Of a DNA stretch of 64,000 nt, positions 4,056 through 43,712 are shown piece by piece. Under the pieces are notes generated by a model, which was not told where the DNA came from, searched no databases, and saw only the letters and a list, made by a program, of their open reading frames with translations. Each line of letters opens with the position of its first letter. Position 1 is the first letter of the stretch. Both the position numbers and the translations under genes were made by a program. Source of the stretch: Escherichia phage vB_EcoM-LTH01; sequence record PP430345; one strand, 5' to 3'.

Positions 4056-4298
4056 TTAAACAGGATGTTGATCACAATAACCAAATACACCAAATCCATC
4101 AATTAGGATCAGATGGTTGTTCCAGTTGATACGCTCATCAACTCCCTTTTCCACAATACTGATCGAATCAACAGAGAAATTAAACGGCTTACCTAACTCT
4201 TTGTTGATATGATCTACAAGAGATTGTTTTGTACCTTCAATCTGTTTAACAGTTTTCAAACTTTCGATCAATGTACCACGATGTTGACGTACTCTCAT
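4056..4298 (-). CDS. hypothetical protein (80 aa)
   Basis: ORF preceded by GGAGG ribosome-binding site. Confidence 0.55.
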   Translation of the reverse strand: MRVRQHRGTLIESLKTVKQIEGTKQSLVDHINKELGKPFNFSVDSISIVEKGVDERINWNNHLILIDGFGVFGYCDQHPV

Positions 4299-4534
4299 TA
4301 CGACCTCCTCTTAATAAATTCCAAAACTATTGAGTAAAACTTTACCCACTGATCCAACAATCATGAAGATCAATCCCAATGTTAGACAGTATATGTAAAA
4401 CTTATCCAATTGACTTTCCTTCTCTTGTTAACTCTACATCTGTTTCATTGTGGTGTCAACACAATTTTGTGGTGACTTAAAAAATTAAGTACCGAACGAA
4501 TGTGAGTGTGGTTAATTTTTTAATAGATATATAA

Positions 4535-4580
4535 ACCCCGTCGAAGCAACCGAGCAGGTTGAGGGGTTTATCATCTAATA
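4535..4580 (-). terminator. possible stem-loop terminator downstream of the 4619-4990 gene
   Basis: AAACCCC ... GGGGTTT inverted repeat with a long loop and a T/A-rich flank; weak. Confidence 0.3.
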
Positions 4581-4618
4581 TAGTATTGTATGCCTAAATG
4601 GGCATAAAGGAAATGTTG

Positions 4619-4990
4619 TTACTTAGACCAACGTTTCAACGTATTCCTTACCATCGTGTGCATACTTTCCTCATCATGACCTGCTGACCACATTGCCGTA
4701 AGTAACGAGAGCAACCTTACAATATCTGGCTCCTCATCTAACAGACTACCAACCGTAGCGGACAGGAAATCAATATCTTCATCAGCAATACGATCAGGAT
4801 ACAGGAAAGTGTCTTCCTTTACAAGATCTATCGGCTTTCCTGATCCAATCTTATGGCGAGATAAAGTAAATCCTTTCCCGTTAAAGGTGGAGGCCCACCA
4901 TTTTACAGCCTCCGCACTTTCATTAATCATGTTGATAGTCATAACCACACCACGCCTACCAACTGATAACTTGTAAGTATACTCGCTCAA
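4619..4990 (-). CDS. hypothetical protein (123 aa)
   Basis: ORF in operon context. Confidence 0.6.
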   Translation of the reverse strand: MSEYTYKLSVGRRGVVMTINMINESAEAVKWWASTFNGKGFTLSRHKIGSGKPIDLVKEDTFLYPDRIADEDIDFLSATVGSLLDEEPDIVRLLSLLTAMWSAGHDEESMHTMVRNTLKRWSK

Positions 4991-5001
4991 AGATCCTCCC
5001 C

Positions 5002-6540
5002 TTATTTAAGATACTTGTCAAAATCAATTGCCTTGCCAAAAGGCGGGGTGAACGAAGACCCGCGACCTAGGATGATCCAAAGAACATTCTTACCATACTT
5101 TTTGGCCCAATCTTTCTTTTGAGATACATCAGCAAAGTAACCGTCAGTATAGATGATGATCTGATCCATAGGGTCTTTCATTTCATCTAATGCTTCAAAC
5201 ACACAAGAAACATCCGTACCAAATGTGGTCTTGATCTTATAGTTAGCAATCTCATTCACATTCTTCTTCGTATACGTTTCAATGTTACCAACCTTTGTTG
5301 ACCAGCAGGCCATCGTGACCTCAAACTCGTCGTAAAGATTACACAATCCACGAATCTCACGCATTGTTGGTCTTAACAGTTCATCGTTAAATGATCCCGA
5401 CACATCAAAGAAAACACCTGCACGGATAGTCTTCTGTTTATTCTTTGATGGTAAACCAATTGTTTGTCGTCCAGACAAGTAACCTGAGCTACGGAGAGTC
5501 CGAGTTAACGAGTGACTACGGCGTGACAAACGACGATATGATACATCATCTTTAAACAGGCGTTCAATAGTTTTACGCAACAAACGAAGATAGTTAATCT
5601 TTGGTTTACCTGCCGCTTCTACAAAACGTCGTGCATCTTCCGGCGCACCGCTTCCTGCTGCCTGTACGGCATTCTCAATAGCTCGACGCATAACCCCATC
5701 GTTGTACTGGCGTTCTTCTGCTGTTTGCTTGGGCTTCGCTTTACGGTCGATTCCCAGTGCATCTTCGATATCATCACCTTCTGAATCTTCTGGATCACCA
5801 TTCTGGTCCATGTGCTGATCAACACCTTTACGACCTTGACCACCTTCTTCACCATCACCCTCTCCACTTCCAGAACCAGAACCTTTCCCTTTGGATTTTT
5901 CTTTATCATCTTGCTCTTTATTCAGTATTTCATAGATCTGCTCAGTATACATATCTTTGAATCGGAAATCACAGTAAGACCAGGCCATAAATCCAAATTC
6001 AGCATTTTTATCAAATACCGTTCTCTCTCCGGCAGGGAACCAGGCTTTACCTAGCTCATCCCCTTTCTGGTGAATAAGCACAGCCGTTGTATTGATACGG
6101 TGATCCGCTGCAATGTTGTAAAGTTCATGATTAAATCCTTTACCACGAGAGGCGTGATCAGAGATCACATGATCACATTCATGCTCAAGAATAAGAGCAA
6201 GCTCACGAGCAGTCTTTCGACGATAGAAGACATTGATAAACTCAATACCCTCTTTCAGCTTTTTAGGATCTTTCTCAGATTTGGAAAGTCGATCAAGTAC
6301 CAATTTTTTACGTTCTTCTGTCATACCTGCAACGAACTCTGGATGGTAATACAGGTTACGTCCATCAGTCGCCATTGTACTACACCACTCCGTCGCCTTT
6401 TTAACAGGCATAGACGAAAGCATCACCCCGTAGAAGGGTTTAAAACGCATCAGTTGTAGACTAGCAGCCTCAATGATACGTTCTGCTTCAGAGACTTGCA
6501 TTTCAATCATGTTGCTTTCTTCAATCGTCAGTTTTGCCAT
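5002..6540 (-). CDS. metallopeptidase-like (HExxH) plus VWA-like domain protein, partner of the adjacent MoxR-like ATPase
   Basis: N-terminal HECDH (HExxH-type) motif, acidic Gly/Ser-rich linker, C-terminal VWA-like FFDVSGSF (DxSxS) motif; sits directly downstream of the AAA+ ATPase. Confidence 0.7.
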   Translation of the reverse strand: MAKLTIEESNMIEMQVSEAERIIEAASLQLMRFKPFYGVMLSSMPVKKATEWCSTMATDGRNLYYHPEFVAGMTEERKKLVLDRLSKSEKDPKKLKEGIEFINVFYRRKTARELALILEHECDHVISDHASRGKGFNHELYNIAADHRINTTAVLIHQKGDELGKAWFPAGERTVFDKNAEFGFMAWSYCDFRFKDMYTEQIYEILNKEQDDKEKSKGKGSGSGSGEGDGEEGGQGRKGVDQHMDQNGDPEDSEGDDIEDALGIDRKAKPKQTAEERQYNDGVMRRAIENAVQAAGSGAPEDARRFVEAAGKPKINYLRLLRKTIERLFKDDVSYRRLSRRSHSLTRTLRSSGYLSGRQTIGLPSKNKQKTIRAGVFFDVSGSFNDELLRPTMREIRGLCNLYDEFEVTMACWSTKVGNIETYTKKNVNEIANYKIKTTFGTDVSCVFEALDEMKDPMDQIIIYTDGYFADVSQKKDWAKKYGKNVLWIILGRGSSFTPPFGKAIDFDKYLK

Positions 6541-6552
6541 TTCATTTTCTCC

Positions 6553-6585
6553 AAATTAAAAAAGGACACCTCTTTCGAGATGCCC
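6553..6585 (-). terminator. stem-loop with GAAA loop followed by U6, between the MoxR and VWA genes; overlaps a TTGACA-N17-TAATAT promoter-like element (6588-6616, minus)
   Basis: Minus-strand reading GGGCATCTC-GAAA-GAGGTGTCC then TTTTTT. Confidence 0.4.
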
Positions 6586-6620
6586 TTATATTAAGTTAAC
6601 TGTTTTTCGTTGTCAAGAGA

Positions 6621-7850
6621 TTATTCGAATTCTTTAATCAGTTGACCATATCGAGTCATGTATTCCATAACTGCGGCAGAAACAGTCGGGCAACTCTTAC
6701 GCATCAGCGGAATCATTTTCTGACGTTTCGGGTTAACAGTTAGGATAGATGGCTTATCGTTTGGACCACGGAACACGCCCAAGATCAAAGCAATCATCGT
6801 ATCCTTGTTGTTTGCATAATAGTTATTGTACATGAACGTAAGGAAGTTACCTGCACGCTCAAGGAACTTATCATCCGTCATGTCATTATCCATAACCTCA
6901 TCTTCCATGCGACGAAGGCCAGTTTGTGCCAGTACGTAAACAAGGTCGTTCTTACTACGATCAAGTTTATGTTCTTTCACTGCCCCACTAAAGATATCTT
7001 CAATCGGTGGAAGTTCTTTAGCACGTAAATGATAAGCAAGGATCTGTACTTCCAGGCCTTCACCAACTGTACCTGCAAGAGCAACCTCTGCGATAAATTC
7101 ATTAATCTCACCTGCATCATACTTGTACAGAATGTCAGATGCTGTTTTCCATTGACGAGGAGATGAATAAACCGGAGTACTTCGGTTTTCTACGTCACCA
7201 GTATAGAAATGCTCTGGAAACTGCTTCAAGAAACCAATAATGTTCGGGTGCAGACGGAACGGAATCGCATAGTCTTCGATCCACACATCCAGATTATAAT
7301 CAACTTCTGCAATAATCATACGGTTAACCAATGGGCCAGGCATAGAAGTAGTCCCTGCTCCATCAGTATCACGGTTACCTGCACCTACAAACACAGTACC
7401 TTTCGGGAACTTATGCTCACCTGCAACGTGATCAAGAATAACCTGATATGCAGAGTGCTGAGTGCCCAATGGTGCATTTGGCAGTTCATCCAGGAACACG
7501 ATACCTTCCCAATCAGGATCAGTAGGCCAAAAGTTTGGAACTGCATATACGGTACGAGTGACTTCTTTACCAGTTTTCGGATCTGGATAAGAGATCGGAA
7601 TCGGAATACCTGCGATATCTTGTGGCTCTTTATCCGACAGACGAACATCACAAAGGTTATTGCCTACACGATGTGGGAACATGGAATCAGCGATCTGTTT
7701 TACTTTTTCAGACTTACCAAGACCAGCACCACCAAAAAAGAATACGGTCTTTCCGATGGAAGCCCCCAGGCGAATCAGTGGTTCCATATCACGGATACTG
7801 ATACGTTTTTTGAACATGGTTTGGTCCATACGTTGATAAGTTGCTTGCAT
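6621..7850 (-). CDS. MoxR-like AAA+ ATPase
   Basis: Walker A FFFGGAGLGKSEK, Walker B IVFLDELPNAP; adjacent to the VWA protein. Confidence 0.7.
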   Translation of the reverse strand: MQATYQRMDQTMFKKRISIRDMEPLIRLGASIGKTVFFFGGAGLGKSEKVKQIADSMFPHRVGNNLCDVRLSDKEPQDIAGIPIPISYPDPKTGKEVTRTVYAVPNFWPTDPDWEGIVFLDELPNAPLGTQHSAYQVILDHVAGEHKFPKGTVFVGAGNRDTDGAGTTSMPGPLVNRMIIAEVDYNLDVWIEDYAIPFRLHPNIIGFLKQFPEHFYTGDVENRSTPVYSSPRQWKTASDILYKYDAGEINEFIAEVALAGTVGEGLEVQILAYHLRAKELPPIEDIFSGAVKEHKLDRSKNDLVYVLAQTGLRRMEDEVMDNDMTDDKFLERAGNFLTFMYNNYYANNKDTMIALILGVFRGPNDKPSILTVNPKRQKMIPLMRKSCPTVSAAVMEYMTRYGQLIKEFE

Positions 7851-7920: not shown

Positions 7921-8454
7921 TTATTTTGAAAAATTTTTACTTCCCCAACGACCAGTAAACATAAAACCCGCATCTTCAAAAACACCATCAGGATTTTCTT
8001 TGAAGAGTTTAAGGTAGTGTTCTAGAACACCGTCCCACTGCTTTTTATCGAAGTATACAACAGATTCACCTGTCAATACAACACCTTCGTCATAACCATC
8101 TTCCTTTTTACCCATGACCATCACGGTATTCTTTTTACGTCGAATAACCACATTATCATGATAGCCTGCACAACCCCCATGACCACAGCTACAAGTAAGG
8201 AATGATGCAAAAGAAAAACCAAATTGCCGATCTCCCTTGTACGTTGGGTTCATAGCTTCAAGGAAAGAAAACATGGTGTAAACACCTTTCGGTTCAGATC
8301 CATTGATCTTACAACCGAGCTTTGTAATGTCACCTTTTGTTTCTTCAGGGAATTCTTTCCAACCATCAGCGTCTTGTACCCCATAATCACCGTAACGTTC
8401 CAAATCGTCAAAGTATGTTGTTGTGAACGGTTCAATACTCAATACCTTTTTCAT
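7921..8454 (-). CDS. hypothetical protein (177 aa), Cys/His-rich segment
   Basis: ORF; CSCGHGGCAGYH cluster. Confidence 0.6.
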   Translation of the reverse strand: MKKVLSIEPFTTTYFDDLERYGDYGVQDADGWKEFPEETKGDITKLGCKINGSEPKGVYTMFSFLEAMNPTYKGDRQFGFSFASFLTCSCGHGGCAGYHDNVVIRRKKNTVMVMGKKEDGYDEGVVLTGESVVYFDKKQWDGVLEHYLKLFKENPDGVFEDAGFMFTGRWGSKNFSK

Positions 8455-9014
8455 TTAAACTCCTTCCACTTTTTAATAAGTTTCTGAACAAATTCTTTAC
8501 GTTCGTCGAGATAGCTACAATAGGCAAAAGAATCACAATAATCGAGATACCTTCCGATACTTTCATACCAACCAACCATCTCCGTAATCAACAAGTGCAT
8601 TGTTACATACTTCCTGATCCGTTGCAAGTCTTTTTCTGTGGTGCTACAAGTTCGCAGAATATCTAAGTTGTGTTTAAGATCCGCAAGCTTAACATGACAA
8701 GCACCCTCACTCTCTAAAATCCCCTCTAGGTAATCAGATGAAGATTGCTTACGTTTCTTTGTCACTGCATCGACAATCACTAAGGTTCTTTCTGAAATCC
8801 CCTTTTTAAAGAGGTGTTCCATAGTGATTTCAGTATCTTCAATCACATCATGCAAAACTCCTGCTGCCATTAAATCTTCCCTTCCCTTTTGCTGCAATGT
8901 TTGCATCACCTGCAAAGGATGAAGAATATAGATATTCCCCCCTTTATCTACTTGGTCAACATGGGCAGAAGCAGCTACGGATATCGCAATGGCTAACTCT
9001 TTATCTTGACTCAT
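8451..9014 (-). CDS. HD-domain small alarmone hydrolase-like protein (RelA/SpoT-type (p)ppGpp hydrolase fold)
   Basis: HPLQV...AAGVLHDVIEDT and KLADLKHNL, matching the SpoT/Mesh1 hydrolase signature (HD...LHDxxEDT...KLADRLHN). Confidence 0.7.
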   Translation of the reverse strand: MSQDKELAIAISVAASAHVDQVDKGGNIYILHPLQVMQTLQQKGREDLMAAGVLHDVIEDTEITMEHLFKKGISERTLVIVDAVTKKRKQSSSDYLEGILESEGACHVKLADLKHNLDILRTCSTTEKDLQRIRKYVTMHLLITEMVGWYESIGRYLDYCDSFAYCSYLDERKEFVQKLIKKWKEFK

Positions 9015-9076
9015 TTGTTATCTCCTTCTCATTTTAGATGTGCACAGTATAATGAAAATAAAATGCAAATCAAGTA

Positions 9077-9105
9077 TTGATCTTCTCCTCAAGTTCTCGT
9101 ATAGT
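9077..9105 (+). promoter_or_regulatory. sigma70-like promoter (TTGATC-N17-TATAGT) for the plus-strand block, in the divergent intergenic region
   Basis: Hexamers read in the sequence about 30 nt upstream of the 9135 start; spacer contains the CTCAAGTTCTCGT 13-mer. Confidence 0.45.
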
Positions 9106-9134
9106 TAGCACATACAAACGACGAGGGGTTAAAA

Positions 9135-9623
9135 ATGAAACATTTCAATACACGAACTTTACATATGCTCGAAGATCACGTCGATGAAAGAGCCTACGAA
9201 TTCTTTATGTCTGATTACCAGGGCAAAAAGACTTGGCATTCTCAAGCAGAGGGAGCCAAACCTACATTGACAGTAGATGCACGAAACTCTGGTGGTTCTA
9301 TTCTTTGTGGGTATTGCGGTAGAAAAGCATTACCTATACAAAATCATATTTTAAGAGTTGTGGGCCACTGCTGTGTTTGTAAAGATGCAATGGACCAATT
9401 AGAGATAGAAAATGAGGAAGAAAAAGTAAAAGAAGAAATGGAAAAACTTCTTGACAAGCTCCGTGAAGTTAAGCCAAAATTAAACAAAGAAATCCTTAAA
9501 TTAACGATGCAGGAAGTGATGAAAGAAGAGATTCGCCGCATCGAAAATGGTTTCTTTTCAACTAATGAAAATCGTTTCGGTATCCAAATAAATAATGGGG
9601 AAGATTATGTTGAAGAAGATTAA
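9135..9623 (+). CDS. Cys-rich (zinc-ribbon-like) plus coiled-coil protein; first gene of the plus block
   Basis: CGYCG ... CCVC motifs, Glu/Lys-rich coiled-coil C-terminus; GAGGGG ribosome-binding site. Confidence 0.6.
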   Translation: MKHFNTRTLHMLEDHVDERAYEFFMSDYQGKKTWHSQAEGAKPTLTVDARNSGGSILCGYCGRKALPIQNHILRVVGHCCVCKDAMDQLEIENEEEKVKEEMEKLLDKLREVKPKLNKEILKLTMQEVMKEEIRRIENGFFSTNENRFGIQINNGEDYVEED

Positions 9624-13682: not shown

Positions 13683-14114
13683 ATGAAATTTGAAATCGGT
13701 AAATATATGGTAACAGTACGGGAAGGTAAGAGTCGCAACAAGATTGAGGTCAGCTTAAATCACCACCCTGGGCTTACTCGTGTGTATGTAGATGCCCCTG
13801 AGGACCTTATCCACCCCGTGTTTCGGAAGTTGTTCGAGTTGAAGGTAAAGGGTATTATTGATGAGGTTCAGAAGCGACTTAGTTATGCCTCTGTTTCCAA
13901 CTACATCCCTACTCGTCATCGTTCTGTCAAGTGGTCTGTGCGCGAGTTCAAAAATGAGTTCACGAACCTACATGGTGATATTGACGAGGCCAAAGATAAC
14001 TGGGATTATAACAAAGCCCCAGCAGGTTCTGCGTTTACGGAAACTAAGTTTGGAGATCTCAAAGCCTTTCTTGAGATGCGGAAAGGTGACAAATTAAATT
14101 TGACAGGAGAATAA
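13683..14114 (+). CDS. hypothetical protein (143 aa)
   Basis: ORF. Confidence 0.6.
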   Translation: MKFEIGKYMVTVREGKSRNKIEVSLNHHPGLTRVYVDAPEDLIHPVFRKLFELKVKGIIDEVQKRLSYASVSNYIPTRHRSVKWSVREFKNEFTNLHGDIDEAKDNWDYNKAPAGSAFTETKFGDLKAFLEMRKGDKLNLTGE

Positions 14115-14115
14115 T

Positions 14116-14367
14116 ATGAAGAAGCCAGTACCCCGTGAAGATATTTATGATTACCTAGCAACAAAAACAAAAGGCTCTGATAATCCAGATGTTCTATTCC
14201 TCCAAAAAATCCCTTATGACAAGGATGGCTGCTTTAAGTTAGACAAAGATGCGAAGGTTCTTGATCTTCCTAAGTTATTTGAAGAGATCGGGATGGATAT
14301 TAAGAATATAGAATACGAAGATTTCTTATGCATCTGTGAAGCTTTCCTTCAACGCTGCGGGGCATGA
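14116..14367 (+). CDS. hypothetical protein (83 aa)
   Basis: ORF with GGAG ribosome-binding site. Confidence 0.55.
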   Translation: MKKPVPREDIYDYLATKTKGSDNPDVLFLQKIPYDKDGCFKLDKDAKVLDLPKLFEEIGMDIKNIEYEDFLCICEAFLQRCGA

Positions 14368-14368
14368 T

Positions 14369-14605
14369 ATGACAGATCGTGATTACTTTGATAAAATAGC
14401 AGATCAAGTTGAAGCATCTGTTTACCATGACCTTCGTATTCTTGTTGAAAAGGACTACGAAAATAAGTATCATGTAGATGTAGAAGAAATTGACGAGGAT
14501 TATGACCCAAGTGACGACTGGAGTTCAGAATACACAGGTGTTGCTTACAAGGTGTTTGACAACTTGAAGGAGGCTGCGGAATGGTTGAAGGAAAAGTACC
14601 TTTAG
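14369..14605 (+). CDS. hypothetical acidic protein
   Basis: ORF; start moved to the ATG just after the upstream stop (track start 14336). Confidence 0.5.
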   Translation: MTDRDYFDKIADQVEASVYHDLRILVEKDYENKYHVDVEEIDEDYDPSDDWSSEYTGVAYKVFDNLKEAAEWLKEKYL

Positions 14606-14772
14606 ACGAGTTAGAGTTTGCAAGAACTGTTCTACACCTTGCAAGATCGGGTGAGTATAAAAGTGGAAGAAGTTTACTTATTAAACTTGTTGAAATTTTT
14701 CCTGAGGTGGATAAGAATGAAATTCTTATTCGTATGAAAGATGTTATTCTTCGTAGCATGGGAGGTTTATAA
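14581..14772 (+). CDS. hypothetical protein (63 aa)
   Basis: ORF. Confidence 0.45.
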   Translation: MVEGKVPLDELEFARTVLHLARSGEYKSGRSLLIKLVEIFPEVDKNEILIRMKDVILRSMGGL

Positions 14773-14966
14773 TGTTCGTAAAAGCAAATTTGTCAGGTGA
14801 GGGTGGTCTTAAAGTTGCTCTGCGTGTAGAAGAGATTCTTCTCTTTCGTGAAGGTAATCATTTTGGTGAAGAAACTACCGTTGTTGTCTTCCGTGATGGA
14901 AGTACAGCACATATCACCCAGGATGTTGAAACTTTTGAACAACTGATCAAGGAAAGTGTAAAATGA
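14772..14966 (+). CDS. hypothetical protein (64 aa)
   Basis: ORF with GGAGG ribosome-binding site. Confidence 0.55.
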   Translation: MFVKANLSGEGGLKVALRVEEILLFREGNHFGEETTVVVFRDGSTAHITQDVETFEQLIKESVK

Positions 14967-15349
14967 CAGCGCACGATAAACTGGCAGCTAAGTATGGCCT
15001 AAAATTCGGTGGTAACTTTGCACTGGAAGGGGTTAGTACGATTTCAGAAGACCTCGAAAAGAAATGCGGGTTTGCAATTGATGGAACTCAAAATCTGGTA
15101 AATCTGATAGGTTATATTGAACACTCCGAACTGGAATACCAAAAGACAGGGTTTGCGGGTCGTCGTGTAACAACCTCTCTTGTACGGGGTCTTGCTGTAC
15201 GTGATGGAAGTATCTATGCGATCACAGATGACTACGTATACCGCCTGTATGGCCCCTGGTTGGGCGAAGTCATCACAAGCAACCCTTTCCTTAATGGTTT
15301 GTGGAAAGGTATTGCTGATCAAATTCAGAAGCATATCGAAGGTAGTTGA
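14963..15349 (+). CDS. hypothetical protein (128 aa)
   Basis: ORF. Confidence 0.6.
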   Translation: MTAHDKLAAKYGLKFGGNFALEGVSTISEDLEKKCGFAIDGTQNLVNLIGYIEHSELEYQKTGFAGRRVTTSLVRGLAVRDGSIYAITDDYVYRLYGPWLGEVITSNPFLNGLWKGIADQIQKHIEGS

Positions 15350-15374
15350 CAAGAGGGTGACCCAGTGATAAGCT
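15346..15374 (+). promoter_or_regulatory. promoter-like TTGACA-N17-TAAGCT overlapping an inverted repeat GACCCAG-N7-CTGGGTC
   Basis: Read in the sequence upstream of the hydrolase gene. Confidence 0.35.
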
Positions 15375-15395
15375 GGGTCCTCAATTGGAGGTAAA

Positions 15396-15911
15396 ATGAA
15401 AAAATTAGTTTTATGTGGTTTGATTTGTACTCTGTCTCTGGCACCAGGCGTCACTTATGCCAAAGAGAGAGCACAGAAGGTTATTCATAAATGTACGAAA
15501 AAGGATAATTCTGTAAATGCCTTAGCCTGTAATGTCTATATGGAGTCCCGAGGCGAGACGATAAATGGTCAAATGGCTGTTGCCTTCGTTACAATGAATC
15601 GGATGAAAAATGATAAATTCCCGAGAACAATGAAAGGAGTTGTGTATCAAGCCTCTCAGTTTTCATGGACATTAACTAAATCCTCTTATAGCATAACAGA
15701 TAAAGACTCCTGGGAGGGCGCTCTAAGCATCTCCAAGTTTGTACACAAGATAAAAAATAATGAGGTTTTGTATAAAAGGTTTGACCCAACACATGGATCT
15801 CTGTACTATCATACTAAGAAGGTTAAACCTGTTTGGCGTAAACTTCTAAAAAGAACAGTCACCATAGAAAATCACATTTTTTACAAAGACAAAGAGGAGA
15901 AAAAGAAATGA
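15396..15911 (+). CDS. secreted cell-wall hydrolase, SleB/CwlJ-like (Hydrolase_2 family); candidate endolysin
   Basis: N-terminal signal peptide (MKKLVLCGLICTLSLAPGVTYA); NVYMESRGE...GQMAVAFVTMNR matches the SleB-type hydrolase motif. Confidence 0.6.
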   Translation: MKKLVLCGLICTLSLAPGVTYAKERAQKVIHKCTKKDNSVNALACNVYMESRGETINGQMAVAFVTMNRMKNDKFPRTMKGVVYQASQFSWTLTKSSYSITDKDSWEGALSISKFVHKIKNNEVLYKRFDPTHGSLYYHTKKVKPVWRKLLKRTVTIENHIFYKDKEEKKK

Positions 15912-16120
15912 TAAAACGCATGATACTGACATTTGCTGTAGTTATGACATTTTGGCTAGTAGGTGTCAGATATGTAAAGAATGCTTACTTTGATCATGTA
16001 GCCGACGAGGTTTTCATCCAGATCAGTGTGACTTCCATTGTAATGTATATGGCAATGATCTTATCCCTTGTAGCAGCGGAGATGTTATATGAAAAACGTA
16101 AAAATAAAACTACTAGATGA
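15908..16120 (+). CDS. small two-helix membrane protein (70 aa); holin-like candidate
   Basis: Two hydrophobic helices and a charged C-terminus, immediately after the hydrolase gene. Confidence 0.45.
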   Translation: MIKRMILTFAVVMTFWLVGVRYVKNAYFDHVADEVFIQISVTSIVMYMAMILSLVAAEMLYEKRKNKTTR

Positions 16121-16286
16121 TTTCAGTGATCGCGATGACCATCCAAAGAAAGGTGATATTCTTATAATTGAAGAAATTCACTATGATGATGATTTTTACC
16201 TTGAGAGTGTTATAGCCGTAGCACTAAAAGACAACAAAGGATATCTACTCTACCCATATGAATATGAGGAACTAAATAATGACTAA
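16089..16286 (+). CDS. hypothetical protein (65 aa)
   Basis: ORF. Confidence 0.45.
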   Translation: MKNVKIKLLDDFSDRDDHPKKGDILIIEEIHYDDDFYLESVIAVALKDNKGYLLYPYEYEELNND

Positions 16287-17637
16287 GACAGTGATCGGTA
16301 ACGAAGCAGCGATGCAGGCAATCATGAATGGTGAAAACGTTTTTATCACCGGACCTGGTGGTAGTGGTAAAAGTATGATGATCGCTGCATTGCGTGACTT
16401 CTTTGCCGATAGTTTTCTGTTTGTTGGTCCTACAGGTGTAGCATCATTAAACATCCGTGGTGTTACTGCCCACAAAGCATTTGGTTTGACATTTGGGGTT
16501 ACAACATCTGAAGATTACAAAGCCAAATCCAAAAAGGCATCTATGCTTATGGCATCTGACGCATTAGACGGTATTGTATTTGATGAGATCGGCATGACTC
16601 GAAGTGACAAGCTGAAAGAGATCGATATGAAACTTCGTCACCATCGTAAGTCTGACAAACCTTTTGGTGGCCTACAGGTCATCATGTTTGGTGATGGTTT
16701 CCAGATCAAGCCTGTACTTAAGAAAGAAGAAGTCCCTCTGTTTCGTGAACTACACGGCAAGGAAATCCCTTTTGGATGTGAAACTTGGGAATCTTTGAAT
16801 TTGACCTATGCCTACCTTCCTAAAGTGCATCGTCAAAGTGACCCTGTGTTTGCAGAACACCTGAATAATATCCGTATCGGGAAAAACATCCCTGATGCCG
16901 TTAACTTCTTTAACCAGCGTTGCTTTGGTCGTCCACTTGACGGGGCAGTAACTTTAACTACCACAAACAAGCTGGCAGAAGAGATTAACAACAAAGAGTA
17001 CGCAAAGATTAATGCTGAACAGCATGAATTTAATGCCCGTATTACTGGTGAGTTTGTTGAACGTCCAGTTAATGAAAAACTCTTTCTCAAGGAAGGTCTT
17101 AAAGTAATGATTGTTGTTAACGACAATGATCAGAAGAAGAAAGTGCCTGATTATGTCAACGGTACAGTCGGCATTGTTCGTCGTATCGCAAAAACCTTTG
17201 TTGTTGTAGATATTGATGGCAAGATGGTCCCAATCGGCCCTGCAACATGGAACAACGTCGCTCAAGTACCTGAGAAAAAGATGATGCTTGAAGAGGAAGA
17301 GGTTGATATGCCTGACGGGACTAAAAAGATGATCAAGAAGATGGTTGAAAAGACTGTTCTTGTTGATAAATCTATTGGTGAATACATTCAATACCCATTC
17401 AAGTTGGGCTATGCGATCACTGGTCACAAGGCACAAGGTTTAACTTTAGGTAAGGTAAACATCGATCTCGGCTTTGGTACTTTCACACCTGGTCAAGCAT
17501 ATGTTATGCTTTCCCGTGCCACGAGTGTAGAAGGTCTTCGCCTTTTGAAACGCTTACGAGTAAAAGATATCATTGTTGACCAAGATGTTGTAAACTTCTA
17601 TCACGAGAAGTTCCCCAGTATCTTCAAGGATCAATAA
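16279..17637 (+). CDS. SF1B DNA helicase (Dda/PIF1/RecD-like)
   Basis: Walker A ITGPGGSGKS, Walker B IVFDEIG, C-terminal ITGHKAQGLT motif. Confidence 0.75.
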   Translation: MTKTVIGNEAAMQAIMNGENVFITGPGGSGKSMMIAALRDFFADSFLFVGPTGVASLNIRGVTAHKAFGLTFGVTTSEDYKAKSKKASMLMASDALDGIVFDEIGMTRSDKLKEIDMKLRHHRKSDKPFGGLQVIMFGDGFQIKPVLKKEEVPLFRELHGKEIPFGCETWESLNLTYAYLPKVHRQSDPVFAEHLNNIRIGKNIPDAVNFFNQRCFGRPLDGAVTLTTTNKLAEEINNKEYAKINAEQHEFNARITGEFVERPVNEKLFLKEGLKVMIVVNDNDQKKKVPDYVNGTVGIVRRIAKTFVVVDIDGKMVPIGPATWNNVAQVPEKKMMLEEEEVDMPDGTKKMIKKMVEKTVLVDKSIGEYIQYPFKLGYAITGHKAQGLTLGKVNIDLGFGTFTPGQAYVMLSRATSVEGLRLLKRLRVKDIIVDQDVVNFYHEKFPSIFKDQ

Positions 17638-17719
17638 ATAATTCAAAAAGATGCAATAAACTTGTTGCATCTTTCTCTCAAAGTGATAAAGTAACTGAAC
17701 ACAAACAAGGAGATTAAAC

Positions 17720-17944
17720 ATGAGTTTCAAAGTTGATGATTTTTCTGTAGACTTGTCTGTACTCAATCGTGCACAACTGCTAAGTCTTCGTGACATTAGT
17801 GCCGATCATATCAAAAAGTGCAAACAAGAAGTTAAGGAATCTGAAGAATTTTATGATTCTGTCATTAAAGCGTTAAAAGTTGTTGAGGAGAAGGCGACAA
17901 CTCTGTATACTATTAACGGTAAGCTCGAAATTATTGAGGGATAA
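17720..17944 (+). CDS. hypothetical protein (74 aa)
   Basis: ORF with AGGAG ribosome-binding site. Confidence 0.55.
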   Translation: MSFKVDDFSVDLSVLNRAQLLSLRDISADHIKKCKQEVKESEEFYDSVIKALKVVEEKATTLYTINGKLEIIEG

Positions 17945-17947
17945 ATA

Positions 17948-18157
17948 ATGATGTTTGATATTGTTAAGTTTGAGGAGAGTGGAAAGTGGTACTTTATCAA
18001 TCGTGATAATTCACAGCCCGAAGTGTTCCGCGCGGTCGATGGCATACTGCTGCAATCTTCATCTGTAAATTTCGAAACTGTCGATCTTGCGTTACAATCT
18101 GGCAGTGCAGAGGTAATTGGTCAAGCTAAAGTCACAATAGAGATTTCACTAACTTAG
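17948..18157 (+). CDS. hypothetical protein (69 aa)
   Basis: ORF. Confidence 0.5.
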   Translation: MMFDIVKFEESGKWYFINRDNSQPEVFRAVDGILLQSSSVNFETVDLALQSGSAEVIGQAKVTIEISLT

Positions 18158-18166
18158 GGGAATGAT

Positions 18167-18535
18167 ATGGATCAACTCGGAAAGTTAAAAATCCCACCTC
18201 ACCTATTCAGTAAGCATATTGGTGAGATCATGGAGACTTTTTCAAAATATGGTCATACACAACAATTACGGGAACGTATTGTTAAAGTAATCAATAAACA
18301 CGTTGTTCCTGACCACAAGGGGGAAAGACTGATGAAAAAGATGGTTCGTTGTTTAGTTAAGAAAGAAAACGGTGATTTTGAACGAGCAGCTAAACTTGGC
18401 TATGGTGTCAATGTTTATTGTGCTGAAGGCTATATGTGGTTGCACAGAAACATAGAAGAAGGTAATATCGGCTTTGTTAAGACACTGATCCAAAATGATG
18501 GTTTTGAAATGATCAGTGAGGTTGAATACGCATGA
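18167..18535 (+). CDS. hypothetical protein (122 aa)
   Basis: ORF with GGGGAA ribosome-binding site. Confidence 0.6.
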   Translation: MDQLGKLKIPPHLFSKHIGEIMETFSKYGHTQQLRERIVKVINKHVVPDHKGERLMKKMVRCLVKKENGDFERAAKLGYGVNVYCAEGYMWLHRNIEEGNIGFVKTLIQNDGFEMISEVEYA

Positions 18536-18723
18536 ATAATGTGTTCAAATACGCAATCAATGATGATGTAAGCTTCGATCAGATTGGCGAAAAGTACGGT
18601 AAGAAAGGTGATGGTAAGATCTTGATGCTGCAAGAATACATTCTTTGCAATGCCTACCTTGTCGAGATGAAAGATGGCACTAAGCTTCAAGTTCGTGAAG
18701 AACATATCATTTCCAAAAAGTAA
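18532..18723 (+). CDS. hypothetical protein (63 aa)
   Basis: ORF with ATGA overlap. Confidence 0.5.
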   Translation: MNNVFKYAINDDVSFDQIGEKYGKKGDGKILMLQEYILCNAYLVEMKDGTKLQVREEHIISKK

Positions 18724-18759
18724 GCAGTAAATAAATATAAATTATCAGGAGAAAATAAA

Positions 18760-19035
18760 ATGCGTACAGTAAACTTCGAATTCACACATTTTCATAAAGC
18801 GATCGGTAAAGAGGTAGTAGTTGAGGCCGAGGTTATTATGTACAAGGGTATTCCAGATGCAGAATCAGATTGGGATGCCGAAGATTACTTAGATATTTTT
18901 TCAATCACTGTTTATGAAGATGGTGAAGAAATTGCTCTTGATATCCCTTATGAAGTGGTGTATCGTTGTATTGAAGAACGTGTCCGTGATGCACAAGTAC
19001 GTCAGGTATTTAATGAAGAAACTGGAGGTTTTTGA
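18760..19035 (+). CDS. hypothetical protein (91 aa)
   Basis: ORF with AGGAG ribosome-binding site. Confidence 0.55.
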   Translation: MRTVNFEFTHFHKAIGKEVVVEAEVIMYKGIPDAESDWDAEDYLDIFSITVYEDGEEIALDIPYEVVYRCIEERVRDAQVRQVFNEETGGF

Positions 19036-19193
19036 TGGACGTTAAGATCTTATCATATACAAATCTATTGGCTCTTCAAAAATTTATACTGAAGCATTAC
19101 GATTACGGTTATAAATTGATTGGTCCTGTAACAACAGGTATTAATTCAAACGGTAACACTATTTATTTGGCGACAATGATCAAGGAGCAGTAA
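19035..19193 (+). CDS. small ORF (52 aa), translationally coupled
   Basis: TGATG overlap upstream, TAATG overlap with the primase start; not in the supplied track. Confidence 0.4.
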   Translation: MDVKILSYTNLLALQKFILKHYDYGYKLIGPVTTGINSNGNTIYLATMIKEQ

Positions 19194-21238
19194 TGAGCAC
19201 TATTGGCGAAAGTCTGTTTGGCGGTTATAAGTTTGGACATAAAAATCCTAAAGCTTCAGTAGCACGTAATTATGGTGGTGGTGTGTCTCGTGTGGAAGAA
19301 ACAGTTGAAGACGTATTGACTTATCCGTGTAAAAGTATCCCTGAGCGTGGTATCGACGAAAAGACAGCTAAACGATTTGGTATTCGTACCAAGTTGTCAG
19401 CTAAAGACGGTATGACACCAGAGGCGCATTATTTTCCGTACACATTGGAAGGTAAGGTTGTAGGTTTTAAGAAGCGTGATCTTACGATCCCTAAGCAACA
19501 GAAAGGTCACTTTACAACTATTGGTTTCCAATCTGTGGCTTGTGATATGTTTGGGCTGGAAGGTGCAAATAAGTCTTCCAAACGTATGATCTTTATCACT
19601 GAAGGTGAATACGATGCTGCAATCTTGTGGCAGGTATTGACAGAGAAGTACAAACCGAAGGATGGTTCCACCCGTAAACCAAACTTCACAGTTGTATCTA
19701 TCTCTAACGGTACATCAAATGCCGTGCAAAACTTATCACAGAAGAATAACTATAAGCTTCTGAGTAAGTTTGAAGAGATTATCGTAGCTTTCGATGCTGA
19801 CCGTGCGACAGAAGCAGAGAAGGCCAAAGGGATCATGAAAGGTAAAGATGCAGTTGCAGCGGTATACTCTGTAATTCCACAAATGAAGGTCGTGGATATT
19901 CCAGAAGATATGGACCCTTGCGATATGTATAACAAAGGTCTTTCTGATCAGTTGTTTTGGGCTGCAATGAAGCCAAAAGAATATGTGCCTGATGGTTTCT
20001 CGACTTATTCACAGTTCCGCGAAAAGGCACATGAGATCCCTAAACTCGGCAAGAAGTTCCCTTGGCCCACCATGACCAAGCTTACTTTAGGCCGTCGCCC
20101 AGGTGAAGGTTACTTTATCGGGGCAGGGGTCAAAATGGGCAAGAGTGAACTTCTTAACCAGATGGTAGAGCACATCACAGGTATTGAGAAGTCAAAGGCT
20201 GCGGTGTTTAAGTTCGAAGAAGAGAACGAAATTACCTGTAAAAAGATCGCAGGTAAGCGTTATCATAAAGACTTTGTTAACGCAGAAAAGGTAATGATTC
20301 CTCAAGAAGATGGAACTTTCCGTGACATTTGGGGTAATGAAGTATTTGAAGGGCAACGTGGCTACTTTAAGCAAGAAGAACTGATCAAAGCTACAGATGA
20401 GGTTGGTGATAGTGTCATCTATTATAACAACTATGGTCGTGCAGTATGGGATGAACTGAAAGGTGCTATCCGTCACGCAGTGATTGTAGAAGGTTGTGAA
20501 GATATCTTTATTGACCCGATCACTCGTCTTGTGCAAGGTATGAGTGCTTCCGAAGCTAACCAGGAGCTGGAACGATTCTCGGATGAGATCTCTAAACTGG
20601 CAAAAGAGCTTGGCTTTACTTATTATTGCTTCTGTCACCTTAACAAGCCTGAATCTGGTAAGCCTCATGAATTTGGTGGTCAAGTCCAGTCGGCACAGTT
20701 TGCTGGTAGCCGTGCAATGATGCGTAACACTTATTACATGTGGGGTATTGAACGTAACAAAGATCCAGAACTCCCGATGAAACAACGTAACACTTCTTAC
20801 TTTGTTATTCTAGATGACCGTAAACACGGTCGTGCTGGTAAATTCCCTGTATTCTATGACATTGATACAGGTGATTATCTGGAACCGCCAGAGGGCTTCT
20901 TAGAGAGTCCTTATGAAACTCTTCGTGAGTGGTATGCCGCTCATCCAGAAGATGATCATCGTTCTCCAGACTTCAAGCCTAAGGCAGCAGAGATTCAACC
21001 CCTATCTGAACAAAACAGTGATCTCACTCGTTCAGATATTAAAGAGGAAGATATTCCTGAGCCGGATGATAACTTCCTGCGTGAGCAAGAGGAAGAGATC
21101 AAGAAGGTTATGGAAGAAATGGAACAACCCTCAGAAGAACCTACATGGGAGCAACAAAGTATCGTTGAATCCGCAGGTGATATTCCTGATGTGCCGGACA
21201 CAGAGCCGGATGATTGGGACGACAACGCACCTTTCTGA
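19193..21238 (+). CDS. bifunctional DNA primase/helicase (T7 gp4-like: Toprim primase plus DnaB-family helicase)
   Basis: Toprim-like IFITEGEYDAAILW; helicase Walker A GAGVKMGKSEL; 681 aa. Confidence 0.75.
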   Translation: MSTIGESLFGGYKFGHKNPKASVARNYGGGVSRVEETVEDVLTYPCKSIPERGIDEKTAKRFGIRTKLSAKDGMTPEAHYFPYTLEGKVVGFKKRDLTIPKQQKGHFTTIGFQSVACDMFGLEGANKSSKRMIFITEGEYDAAILWQVLTEKYKPKDGSTRKPNFTVVSISNGTSNAVQNLSQKNNYKLLSKFEEIIVAFDADRATEAEKAKGIMKGKDAVAAVYSVIPQMKVVDIPEDMDPCDMYNKGLSDQLFWAAMKPKEYVPDGFSTYSQFREKAHEIPKLGKKFPWPTMTKLTLGRRPGEGYFIGAGVKMGKSELLNQMVEHITGIEKSKAAVFKFEEENEITCKKIAGKRYHKDFVNAEKVMIPQEDGTFRDIWGNEVFEGQRGYFKQEELIKATDEVGDSVIYYNNYGRAVWDELKGAIRHAVIVEGCEDIFIDPITRLVQGMSASEANQELERFSDEISKLAKELGFTYYCFCHLNKPESGKPHEFGGQVQSAQFAGSRAMMRNTYYMWGIERNKDPELPMKQRNTSYFVILDDRKHGRAGKFPVFYDIDTGDYLEPPEGFLESPYETLREWYAAHPEDDHRSPDFKPKAAEIQPLSEQNSDLTRSDIKEEDIPEPDDNFLREQEEEIKKVMEEMEQPSEEPTWEQQSIVESAGDIPDVPDTEPDDWDDNAPF

Positions 21239-26865: not shown

Positions 26866-29202
26866 ATGAAAGGCTTATTTATTGGAGATGCGGAAGCTAA
26901 CGGCCTGTTGACAGAGGTTGATCTCATTCACTGCGTCCTGTTTAAAGAGTATAAAAAAGATAACTGGAACATCTTTCTTGATCCCCAACGGGAAGGTTAC
27001 GATCAAGCTGTTAAATTTATCCAATCTAAAGGTAAAAACTTTAAGATTCGCACTATTGAAGAATTAAACGAATGGTTTGTCACAGAGCCTAAGGCAATTG
27101 CTATCCACAACATCTTCGGCTATGACCTCCAGTTGTTTAAGAAGATGCTAGGAACAACTTACGATATGTTTGCAGACCCTGGTTGCATGGGGACGATCAA
27201 TGGTAAACAAGTAACCATCTTCGATACACTTTCAATGTCCCGTACATTGTATCCAGATCGCCCTCTGCCTCGCGGTTGTCCTGAGATGGTAAAGAACCCC
27301 GTCACAGGTAAAATGAAGCCTGTAGGGCCACACGGGCTTGAAGCTTGGGGTATGCGAGTAGCCAACCAGAAAGTGGCGATTGAAGATTGGCGTGGCCTTC
27401 CACTTTGGAAGTATTGCGATCGTATTATTGAAGACGTAATTATCAACGAAATGGTGTGGGATGCTCTGATGAAAGAGATCTCTTGTGAATCTATGCCGGA
27501 TGATAAACGCTTCATGTATAAGGATGAAACAGACAAAGATCAGAAGAAGTATAAAATGATCAACTGGAAGAATGCCCTGCGTCGAGGTATGTTGACTGAC
27601 TACCTGATGATTGAGCAAGAAATTCAAGGTGTTTCATTTGATGAAGAAAAAGCACTCAAGCTTCGTGATCGTATCGATAAGATGATGACTGACATTGAGT
27701 TAGAGGTTGAACCTAAGTTGCCGAAGAAAGAGATGTCGAAATCAGCACAACCGACATTCCCATCCAAACCTTTCAAGGGCGATGGCTCTCTTTCCGGTAC
27801 AGGTTGGAAATGGTTAGAGAAGTTAGGTTATAATATCAATTGGGAAGCCTTGGAATTTAAAGGTGCACCAAGTAAGCCGTTTAAGGCTGACGGATCTCTT
27901 ACTGCCGCCGCGATCAAGTATTGTGTTGAACACGGTGTAGAAGATGAATCCAAAATGGGTGATTTTATCCGTGCACAAAACGTTAAGCAGCAAGGGCTTG
28001 TTCCTTTGCCGCCGGAAGATATGGCTCGTGCTTTGATGGATATCAAAGAACAAAAGATGCCGGACATTATGATCCCGATGCGTATTGGTAACCAGGACGA
28101 CGTTAAGAAGTTCCTGATCCGTGATGCAGGGTGGATTCCAACAATTTGGCGTACAAAGGATGCAACTAAAGATCAGTTCAAGAAACAACGTCCAGATAGT
28201 GAGGTTGACCTGATTGTTCGTCAATATATTGAAGATTTGGATCAGACAGAGTATCGGGATTTGATTCTGAAAAGCTTATCGATCACCCCTAAACAGTGGT
28301 CCGATAAAGAAAAGATGTTCAAGTTCTTCCGTAAGAAAGCCCGTGCATTACCAACATCTCCACAACTTAAGGATCAGCAGGGTCTTTGCCCTAACCTTGA
28401 GCGAGTAGATGGTGAAATGGCTAAACAGATTGTTAAATGGCTGTCTTTACGTAACCGACGATCTGTTCTTGACCCACTGAAAGAAGAGAAGGTTGATACC
28501 GGATGGCTTAACCATCCACGTCTACGAGTTGACGGTAAACTTCCGGCCCGTTATAGTGGAATAACTAACACAGGTCGTCGTAAGCATACGATCGTAGCAA
28601 ACGTACCTAAGCCGGATGAGAAAGTTCTTCTCGGTAAAGAGATGCGTGAACTGTTTAGAGCCTCCGAGGGTAAATATCAGGTAGGTATCGACGGTTCAAA
28701 CTTGGAAGGTATGATCGCGGCATGGGGCGCGTATGATTTCGATGGTGGCGCTTATCTTCGTATCATGGAATCTGGAGATGCTCACTCCCGAAACGCAGAA
28801 GCGTATACCAAAGCGGCAGGGAAGAAGGTTTCTCGTGGTGAAGGTAAAGGTGTGACATACGGAATTATGTACGGGGCACAGGCAGCGAAGATTGCATCAA
28901 TGCTGGGGATCACTCTTGAGAAGGCCCAGGCAGTAATCGACGCATTCTGGGATAGCAACATCGGCTTGAAAGGTCGTAAAGAAGCATTAGAGAAGTTTTG
29001 GGAAGCTAACGGTAAGCGATTCATCTACGGTCTTGATGGACGTAAGATCTACACTCGTTCCAAACACTCATTGCTTAATGCTTATCAGCAGAATGGTGGT
29101 GCTGCACTGTTTGACTTGGTGGGTATCCTCCTGCACTGGCAGTTGGTCAAGAAAGGTTGGTATGATGAAGGCGTTAGACGTATTATCTATTACCATAAGT
29201 AA
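26866..29202 (+). CDS. family A DNA polymerase (T7 gp5 / Pol I-like), 5' exon; the ORF runs into the intron and stops at 29202, true splice junction unresolved
   Basis: AAGGAG then ATG at 26866; exonuclease-like FIGDAEANGL; motif B RGEGKGVTYGIMYGAQ; ...GLDGRK...LLNAYQQ..RRIIYYH aligns with the pre-motif-C region of Pol I/T7 polymerase (recalled from memory). Confidence 0.75.
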   Translation: MKGLFIGDAEANGLLTEVDLIHCVLFKEYKKDNWNIFLDPQREGYDQAVKFIQSKGKNFKIRTIEELNEWFVTEPKAIAIHNIFGYDLQLFKKMLGTTYDMFADPGCMGTINGKQVTIFDTLSMSRTLYPDRPLPRGCPEMVKNPVTGKMKPVGPHGLEAWGMRVANQKVAIEDWRGLPLWKYCDRIIEDVIINEMVWDALMKEISCESMPDDKRFMYKDETDKDQKKYKMINWKNALRRGMLTDYLMIEQEIQGVSFDEEKALKLRDRIDKMMTDIELEVEPKLPKKEMSKSAQPTFPSKPFKGDGSLSGTGWKWLEKLGYNINWEALEFKGAPSKPFKADGSLTAAAIKYCVEHGVEDESKMGDFIRAQNVKQQGLVPLPPEDMARALMDIKEQKMPDIMIPMRIGNQDDVKKFLIRDAGWIPTIWRTKDATKDQFKKQRPDSEVDLIVRQYIEDLDQTEYRDLILKSLSITPKQWSDKEKMFKFFRKKARALPTSPQLKDQQGLCPNLERVDGEMAKQIVKWLSLRNRRSVLDPLKEEKVDTGWLNHPRLRVDGKLPARYSGITNTGRRKHTIVANVPKPDEKVLLGKEMRELFRASEGKYQVGIDGSNLEGMIAAWGAYDFDGGAYLRIMESGDAHSRNAEAYTKAAGKKVSRGEGKGVTYGIMYGAQAAKIASMLGITLEKAQAVIDAFWDSNIGLKGRKEALEKFWEANGKRFIYGLDGRKIYTRSKHSLLNAYQQNGGAALFDLVGILLHWQLVKKGWYDEGVRRIIYYHK

Positions 29203-29917
29203 CATTGTGGCTTTGTGAGGTAACTCACATCGAAAACTCCTTTAATTGCTGGAAGACTAAGGTTGATATTAATTCAAGTGTGAGTTAGTATGAGACTATG
29301 TTAATCAGCAGCGAAGAGGATCATGTGGAATATAAAGATTATTTCGGTTACAAGGTTTATGAAGACGGGACCATTATAGGTCGTCGAGGGAAACCAATGG
29401 CGGCAGTTGATAATGGACGTGGGTATCTTATTGTAAGTCTGTATCTCAACAAAAGGACGACTACAAAGGCTGTTCACGTTTTGGTGGCAGAGTGTTTTGT
29501 ACCAAACCCTGAAGGTTTGCCGGAGGTTGATCATAAGTGGCCTGACAAAAGGAATAACCACTATTCAAACCTCCAATGGACAACTCGTGGTGGAAATATC
29601 AAGAAAACCTTTGCTGATAAATGTCGTTCAGCAACAGGGGTTGATAACGCCAGAAGTATAGTTACCGAAGAAGAGGTTAGAGAGATTTGCAACTTCCTGG
29701 GGCAAGGTTATGGAAGTGCACAGATTCGGGATATGGGTTATCCTTACAACGTGGTAAGGTCCATAAAAATCCGTAAAAACTGGACACACATCTCTTGTGA
29801 CTACACATGGTCCTAACGTTCAGAGACTAGCCGAGAGGCGTAGGCGAGCAAGTGCCGTCGAAATGGGGAGCATCCTGAAAAGGATGGTGATATAGTCCGA
29901 TCCATACGTGAAAACGT
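29203..29917 (+). mobile_element. group I self-splicing intron carrying an HNH homing-endonuclease ORF, inserted in the polymerase gene at or near motif C (boundaries approximate; the 3' end may lie as far as about 30116)
   Basis: After the HNH stop: GTTCAGAGACTA (J6/7-P7) ... GATATAGTCC (P7 3' strand) and a P9-like hairpin CCATACGTG-AAAA-CGTATGG, matching the conserved group I core as I recall it from the Tetrahymena and T4 td introns. Confidence 0.65.
29298..29816 (+). CDS. HNH homing endonuclease (intron-encoded)
   Basis: YKDYFGYKVYEDGTIIGRRGKP...GYLIVSLY...AVHVLVAECFVPNP..LPEVDHKWPDKRNNHYSNLQWTT is the typical free-standing HNH homing-endonuclease pattern; different frame from both polymerase segments. 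Confidence 0.75.
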   Translation: MLISSEEDHVEYKDYFGYKVYEDGTIIGRRGKPMAAVDNGRGYLIVSLYLNKRTTTKAVHVLVAECFVPNPEGLPEVDHKWPDKRNNHYSNLQWTTRGGNIKKTFADKCRSATGVDNARSIVTEEEVREICNFLGQGYGSAQIRDMGYPYNVVRSIKIRKNWTHISCDYTWS

Positions 29918-42863: not shown

Positions 42864-42885
42864 AGATCACCTTCATTATCAATGT

Positions 42886-43706: not shown

Positions 43707-43712
43707 CTAAGG

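Follow-up and report, generated by a model that had tools for sequence, protein, structure and literature searches.

An Aph1-like small alarmone hydrolase of a Vequintavirinae coliphage as a candidate counter-measure against toxSAS defences

Why would a lytic phage encode a stand-alone alarmone hydrolase, and which nucleotides would such an enzyme attack? The question is raised by a gene for a 187-residue protein at 8451–9014, on the minus strand, of the 64,000-nucleotide stretch of Escherichia phage vB_EcoM-LTH01 analysed here (PP430345; hereafter the window). An initial annotation, made from the letters alone, had described its product as a SpoT/Mesh1-like HD-domain small alarmone hydrolase (SAH) and had offered two roles for it: damping of the host stringent response, or neutralization of the alarmone-synthetase toxins (toxSAS) used in abortive infection. 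The open reading frame is as described there, an ATG-started frame on the minus strand. The window has a G+C content of 41.8%, is 97.5% identical over 4 kb to the 143-kb Escherichia phage UPEC06 (Vequintavirinae) and 92–97% identical to phages A7_1, A5-4, A73 and W70; its source is a Vequintavirinae coliphage, a lytic myovirus. Here we suggest that the gene probably encodes a Mn2+-type SAH of the Aph1/PbcSpo kind, expressed early and acting as a generic counter-measure against host toxSAS.

The family assignment is confirmed far beyond chance. Comparison with HD and RelA/SpoT hydrolase profiles, which the initial annotation had proposed as a check, gave significant matches to Pfam HD_4 (PF13328; E = 9.3e-8, 32.4 bits against a gathering cut-off of 27.2) and to PHROG 990, ‘metal-dependent phosphohydrolase’ (E = 1e-52). 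All three RelA/SpoT hydrolase motifs named at the outset are present in the protein, HPLQV at residues 32–36, AAGVLHDVIEDT at 50–61 and KLADLKHNL at 109–117. Pfam returned HD families only, with no RelA_SpoT synthetase, TGS or ACT domain in the 187 residues. As the match to TIGR00691, a model of long RelA/SpoT homologues (RSHs), is confined to positions 1–85 of its 687 and the chain length leaves no room for a synthetase, we regard it as a single-domain hydrolase, as had been claimed. Among proteins of known structure, Aph1 of Bacteroides caccae (7smg, ‘(p)ppApp hydrolase’) gives the top sequence match (E = 4.5e-22, 33–34% identity), followed by the weaker matches of Rel/SpoT fragments (1e-12 to 1e-8) and MESH1 (~1e-7).

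The family is very large. A phmmer search over 1.84 billion representatives returned 14,956 sequences at E ≤ 1e-3, 3,553 at E ≤ 1e-10 and 4 at E ≤ 1e-30, and 294 phage records, spread over many host genera, contain homologues. Phage records label the family inconsistently, as ‘GTP pyrophosphokinase’, ‘putative (p)ppGpp synthase’, ‘ppGpp 3'-pyrophosphohydrolase’ or ‘hypothetical protein’. The UPEC06 copy (QUL77367.1; 7452–8015 in the UPEC06 stretch compared) bears the first of these names, which is wrong because it denotes the reverse reaction.

The catalytic apparatus of the phage protein is complete. Residues H32, H55, D56, E59, D60, K109, D112, N116 and Y136 are invariant in all 41 homologues compared, and the metal-binding His...His-Asp...Asp set and the Glu-Asp catalytic dyad are both preserved, in register with their SpoT and Aph1 counterparts. 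D56 presumably matches the site of D54A, a mutation that inactivates ATfaRel. For substrate preference, we aligned the phage hydrolase with Aph1 and Escherichia coli SpoT and compared it with the Aph signature, defined as D24, R96, D116, R119, K133 and Y134 (Ahmad et al. 2023, PMC10083569). Five of these six residues are kept (phage = Aph1: D23 = D24, D118 = D116, R121 = R119, K135 = K133 and Y136 = Y134). D23, which is Asp in 37 of the 41 homologues, stands where SpoT and Rel carry Arg, and the phage segment N116-L-D118-I-L-R121 corresponds to N-M-D-I-T-R in Aph1 and to N-M-R-T-L-G in SpoT; R121 is kept in 38, K135 in 36 and D118 in 27 of the homologues. An 11-residue insertion of SpoT has no counterpart in the phage protein. 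Hydrolysis of ppGpp is undetectable with wild-type Aph1 but is gained by a D24R+R119A double mutant (PMC10083569). Because the catalytic set is invariant and the Aph-type residues are kept in most homologues, the enzyme looks active and is predicted to prefer adenosine-based over guanosine-based substrates.

Structure prediction points in the same direction. In an AlphaFold2 model built with 41 homologues as input (pLDDT 92.1, pTM 0.89), residues ~1–145 form the catalytic core and residues ~146–187 a C-terminal helical hairpin specific to the clade. When the Protein Data Bank was searched with Foldseek, the four chains of 7smg took ranks 1–4 (TM-score 0.88–0.91, normalized on the target; root mean squared deviation 1.4–1.8 Å over ~140 residues), with MESH1 next (TM-score ~0.66; 3.4–3.8 Å) and then PaSAH, SpoT and Rel. 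The modelled fold is compact, lacks the helices typical of (p)ppGpp hydrolases and carries the hairpin as a C-terminal addition. The original label of ‘SpoT/Mesh1-like’ thus needs amending: a stand-alone HD small alarmone hydrolase it is, but its closest type is Aph1/PbcSpo, by its signature residues and by a TM-score of 0.90 against ~0.66. Membership of the PbcSpo subfamily in particular we infer from 46% identity to, and a PHROG shared with, the SAH of Salmonella phage PVP-SE1.

This kinship brings the protein close to enzymes of known effect. Jimmy et al. (2020; PMC7229694) sorted SAHs into subfamilies, found them to be common in phages and prophages, and proposed that incoming phages use them to bypass alarmone-based abortive infection. 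Of the two stand-alone phage SAHs that they tested in E. coli, that of PVP-SE1 (PbcSpo) neutralized all five toxSAS tested, namely CapRel, PhRel, PhRel2, FaRel and FaRel2 (PMC7229694, Table 1). We take gp220 to be this PVP-SE1 protein by elimination, as the sole HD_4/PHROG 990 protein among the annotated hydrolases in ~100 kb of the PVP-SE1 genome; gp162, also annotated ‘hydrolase’, belongs to the unrelated PHROG 3668 and was rejected. The PbcSpo member ATfaRel, as well as MESH1, restores aminoacylation of tRNA pyrophosphorylated by FaRel2 (bioRxiv 10.1101/2021.04.30.441581). PaSpo of phage SSU5 likewise removes the toxSAS modification of tRNA.

We propose that the phage hydrolase would remove the 3'-pyrophosphate from adenosine-based substrates of two kinds: (pp)pApp made by synthetases of the FaRel/Tas1/Apk type and, by analogy with ATfaRel and PaSpo, tRNA whose A76 has been 3'-pyrophosphorylated by toxSAS of the CapRel/PhRel/FaRel2 type. 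An adenosine-type SAH could plausibly take both, because the 3'-terminal adenosine of tRNA bearing a 3'-pyrophosphate chemically resembles ppApp. Host RNA polymerase would transcribe the gene from a sigma-70-like promoter as the first of an early block, and degradation of the toxin products would allow the lytic phage to replicate in hosts with toxSAS abortive-infection systems, with no need to recognize the toxins themselves by protein–protein contact. The adenosine specificity of the phage enzyme, its early expression and its counter-defence function during infection are inferred. Between the two roles first put forward, toxSAS neutralization is favoured over damping of the stringent response because residues and fold are those of an Aph1/PbcSpo-type enzyme and not of a SpoT/Mesh1-like one.

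The surroundings of the gene are consistent with early expression. The hydrolase does head the leftward block, as had been noted: it is the first minus-strand gene, and its neighbour across the gap (9135–9623) runs in the opposite direction. The adjoining region had been described as a divergent promoter region, and the gap indeed contains conserved, putative sigma-70-like elements arranged back to back (Table 1). Across the window, UPEC06, the Cronobacter phage CR8 and the P0002 contig—a metagenomic contig that encodes P0002, the closest relative outside UPEC06, at 52% identity—the mean column identity of 9015–9134 is 78%, against 45–52% for the flanking proteins, which suggests a constrained regulatory element extending beyond the promoter hexamers. 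In the same four-phage alignment, which includes phages whose hydrolases are only 45–52% identical, the TTG of the -35 elements is invariant, as are parts of the -10 elements. The presence of sigma-70-like elements, their conservation and the invariant TTG together suggest early expression by host RNA polymerase. In the Shine-Dalgarno sequence AGGAG, the GG, G and A are invariant across the relatives aligned.

How do other explanations fare? An enzyme that hydrolyses (p)ppGpp and so brings down host ppGpp levels, such that the stringent response spares phage transcription and translation, would be in keeping with an HD core and catalytic residues common to SpoT, Rel and MESH1, and with several database records that name homologues ppGpp pyrophosphohydrolase; the stringent response can restrict phages, and is countered by other means (bioRxiv 10.64898/2026.01.27.700999). 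The base-contacting positions, however, speak for a different substrate. The guanine-contacting Arg of Rel/SpoT is D23 here, and R121 fills the space of the guanine O6; in Aph1, the same two positions exclude ppGpp, and both were mutated to gain the activity (PMC10083569). Among 12 Aph1 homologues assayed in that study, ten, like Aph1 itself, lacked ppGpp activity, whereas two had a modest one, and ATfaRel counteracted ppGpp accumulation in vivo. As the specificity residues and the fold are both Aph1-like, the latter without the extra helical insertion of ppGpp hydrolases, we consider this role unlikely.

It is quite unlikely, too, that the Vequintavirinae version has specialized in de-pyrophosphorylation of tRNA 3' ends and not in hydrolysis of free nucleotides, an idea that draws in part on the C-terminal hairpin, the sole distinctive feature of the phage protein. 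In the model, the last core helix runs to residue 157 and a second helix spans 162–186, accounting for the ~40 extra residues. The hairpin is common to CR8-type phages and P0002, moderately conserved among them, shortened in PVP-SE1, and absent from Aph1 and most bacterial homologues. This distribution fits such a specialization without demonstrating it, as does the position of the hydrolase, always first in a block with a MoxR ATPase and a DUF2201 protein, and the possession by the phage of a CCA-adding enzyme, an RlaP-type RNA-repair nucleotidyltransferase and an RNA ligase. A reading of the extension as a basic, nucleic-acid-binding tail was rejected, as CR8 and P0002 do not conserve its Lys-rich end; for the same reason the modelled hairpin is better read as a structural or oligomerization element, with a role in tRNA recognition an outside possibility. 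Were the specialization true, the phage would possess a tRNA-repair toolkit directed against tRNA-targeting defences, with the hydrolase as one of its arms.

RNA- and tRNA-repair-type genes of UPEC06 form a cluster at 13935–19945 and 28975–29316 (both minus strand), which comprises an RlaP-family nucleotidyltransferase (PF10127, E = 5e-18), a CCA-adding enzyme, a ‘seryl-tRNA synthetase’ fragment and an RNA ligase fragment; PVP-SE1 has equivalents in the tRNA nucleotidyltransferase gp159 and the RNA ligase gp239. Together with the hydrolase, the UPEC06 genes could constitute such a toolkit. A search for tRNA genes in the window found none.

We give little credence to an action on some other 3'-phosphorylated metabolite, as for metazoan MESH1 (NADPH, and a complex with 3'-phosphoadenosine 5'-phosphosulfate, PAPS), or to a general role in nucleotide pools, either of which would mean that host metabolism is reprogrammed and no toxin countered. 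MESH1 structures with NADPH and with PAPS are among the fold matches, but MESH1 fits less well than Aph1 both in fold (TM-score 0.66 against 0.90) and in sequence (E = 7e-7 against 4.5e-22), and the Aph signature residues are conserved among the homologues. Promiscuity of SAHs is documented (PMC9765508). A gene annotated ‘thymidylate kinase’ adjoins or overlaps the hydrolase gene in PVP-SE1 and Klebsiella relatives; no such neighbour exists in the window, CR8 or the P0002 contig. In relatives of the Seunavirus/Mydovirus type (PVP-SE1 39791–41292, and Klebsiella and Proteus phages), this upstream gene encodes ~340 residues and overlaps that of the hydrolase, an arrangement that may explain the great length, relative to the protein, of the PHROG 990 and 30929 profiles (374 and 413 positions).

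Finally, type IV antitoxin or immunity function against a (p)ppApp synthetase toxin of the phage itself—as in Aph1–Apk2, in which Aph1, the closest solved relative, protects the host of a Bacteroides prophage from MuF-fused Apk2, or in ATfaRel–FaRel, in which a PbcSpo member is the operon-encoded antitoxin—is highly improbable and was rejected, because the search of the phage genome turned up no alarmone synthetase: neither RelA_SpoT (PF04607) nor Phage_Mu_F was detected in a Pfam sweep of window open reading frames of at least 70 residues (1–30 kb) or at least 150 residues (30–64 kb) and of unannotated or ambiguous frames of at least 150 residues elsewhere in UPEC06, with the head module covered. 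For this sweep, open reading frames were joined by glycine–serine linkers, and the spurious ‘Serglycin’ matches that these produced were ignored. The open reading frames in the last 16 kb of UPEC06 (127–143 kb) are all shorter than 140 residues. The neighbours of the hydrolase—a phrog_8242 protein, the MoxR ATPase and the DUF2201 protein—include no toxin, the phage is a lytic myovirus and not a temperate carrier of a MuF toxin, and in Jimmy et al. the PVP-SE1 enzyme figures as a stand-alone SAH (PMC7229694).

Several points count against an early, adenosine-directed anti-toxSAS enzyme. Promoter-like sites are not enriched over shuffled sequence (16, against 11.3 ± 3.7 expected), and with a count within that expectation the promoters in Table 1 remain putative. 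The sixth position of the Aph signature, R96 in Aph1, is Gly (G98) in the phage protein and in its three closest aligned phage homologues (P0002, CR8 and PVP-SE1), and Arg in only 25 of the 41 homologues. R96 is the sole signature residue away from the active site (PMC10083569); for this reason we give it little weight and describe the protein as Aph1-like, with five of six residues, rather than full-signature. Strict adenosine specificity is not guaranteed, given the two Aph1 homologues with modest ppGpp hydrolysis and the effect of ATfaRel on ppGpp in vivo. A highly divergent synthetase, below the sensitivity of Pfam or lying in smaller frames or in already annotated UPEC06 frames, could have been missed. 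The searchable literature shows no phage SAH that matters during real infection, and PMC9712102 makes no mention of a test of CapRel-SJ46 on rV5-like phages.

The idea is not new: bypass by SAHs was proposed, and the 46%-identical PVP-SE1 enzyme at a matching genomic position tested, by Jimmy et al., and both have been in the literature since 2020. The value of the present case is mainly practical and confirmatory. It would be one more well-supported case in favour of the view that a counter-measure to toxSAS, acting by product degradation, is routine equipment of large lytic phages of enterobacteria. Its sequence offers grounds to expect enzymes of this lineage to be specific for adenosine and not for guanosine, and it corrects misleading database labels such as the UPEC06 ‘GTP pyrophosphokinase’.

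Downstream of the hydrolase, the block continues with three further genes (Table 1). Given the ATGA overlap of stop and start codons, the first of these is probably co-transcribed and translationally coupled with the hydrolase gene. Its 177-residue product has a conserved CSCGHGGCAGYH motif, is 57% identical to CR8_114 and gave no match in a Pfam scan. An obligatory pairing of the two genes was rejected as a conserved feature: in CR8, the homologue lies two genes away from the hydrolase, and in the P0002 contig and PVP-SE1 it is absent beside it. With the CR8 homologue non-adjacent, nothing indicates that the two genes form a module of their own. The order common to CR8 and the P0002 contig is the divergent gap, the hydrolase, zero to four small genes, the ATPase and the DUF2201 protein; PVP-SE1 matches it up to the ATPase, with the ‘thymidylate kinase’ gene inserted ahead of the hydrolase. 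The ATPase/DUF2201 pair is kept in the window, CR8 and the P0002 contig (6613–9475 and 6609–9438 in the relatives' stretches), and in PVP-SE1 the ATPase alone was observed (42823–44031). PHROG 1314 calls the DUF2201_N protein ‘HNH endonuclease’, which looks like a mislabel.

Table 1. Features of the hydrolase locus, in window coordinates
Feature	Coordinates	Strand	Remarks
Putative plus-strand promoter	-35 TTGATC 9077..9082; -10 TATAGT 9100..9105	+	Spacer 17; toward rightward block
Divergent intergenic region	9015..9134	both	120 bp; back-to-back sigma-70-like elements (consensus scan)
Putative minus-strand promoter	-35 TTGATT 9073..9068; -10 TATACT 9051..9046	-	Spacer 16; toward hydrolase block
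Shine-Dalgarno AGGAG	9026..9022	-	7 nt 5' of the ATG at 9014; direct sequence reading
Small alarmone hydrolase gene	8451..9014	-	ATG start; 187 aa; HD_4 domain, Aph1/PbcSpo type
177-aa protein, phrog_8242	7921..8454	-	Start overlaps hydrolase stop (ATGA)
MoxR-type AAA+ ATPase, 409 aa	6621..7850	-	PHROG 1297 ATPase, E = 7.5e-101; UPEC06 label ‘MoxR ATPase’
Strong terminator-like hairpin	6587..6562	-	After MoxR ATPase (terminator scan)
DUF2201_N putative metallopeptidase protein, 512 aa	5002..6540	-	PF13203, E = 1.1e-24; usual MoxR ATPase partner

Other genes deserve brief mention. A UPEC06 gene labelled ‘swarming motility protein ybiA’ (40443–40994, minus strand) encodes a NADAR domain protein (PF08719, E = 4e-36); the NADAR family is linked to the reversal of ADP-ribosylation, and this protein may be a further candidate counter-defence enzyme. 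At 4085–7583 (minus strand), UPEC06 carries three tandem paralogues of ~380–400 residues with RCC1-like β-propeller repeats (PF25390, RCC1_2), each starting MLEM(L/M)NLG. In the window, 59154–60851 and 61548–63926 (both minus strand) encode large proteins of collagen-triple-helix repeats (PF01391; E = 4.5e-48 and 9.5e-37, respectively), of which the latter has a Fibritin_C-like end; the two are probably head or whisker fibres.

Among known systems, the nearest is gp220 of PVP-SE1, also a member of the Vequintavirinae and of PHROG 990, which is 46% identical over 154 residues (E = 4e-44). In its block, too, a divergent promoter region precedes the gene and a MoxR ATPase gene lies downstream, and the protein shares the Aph-type residues as well as the Gly at the R96 position. 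It differs in its length of 169 residues, extended by 11 residues at the N terminus and with the hairpin reduced to a stub, and in being overlapped by the preceding ‘thymidylate kinase’ gene. Aph1 (7SMG) is the best match in sequence and fold among solved structures, with the same HD/ED set, five of six signature residues in common, including D24 and R119, and a compact core. At 149 residues, however, it is ~40 residues shorter at the C terminus and has Arg in place of the phage Gly at position 96. It is also an immunity protein, encoded in a temperate phage next to a MuF-fused (p)ppApp synthetase; no synthetase turned up in the sweep of the present phage.

ATfaRel of Cellulomonas marina and PaSpo of Salmonella phage SSU5, compared by their descriptions, are single-domain SAHs that neutralize all toxSAS classes through degradation of the products, which extends to stripping pyrophosphate from the CCA end of tRNA—the mechanism that we propose for the phage hydrolase. 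ATfaRel differs in belonging to a three-gene toxin–antitoxin operon, and PaSpo in belonging to another SAH subfamily. E. coli SpoT, Rel and MESH1 have the HD_4 fold in common with the phage protein and match it at the metal-binding and catalytic positions, but they carry Arg at the position of D23, NMRT in place of N-x-D-x-x-R and an extra helical insertion (11 residues in SpoT), and give poorer fold scores; the long RSHs, in addition, carry synthetase and regulatory domains.

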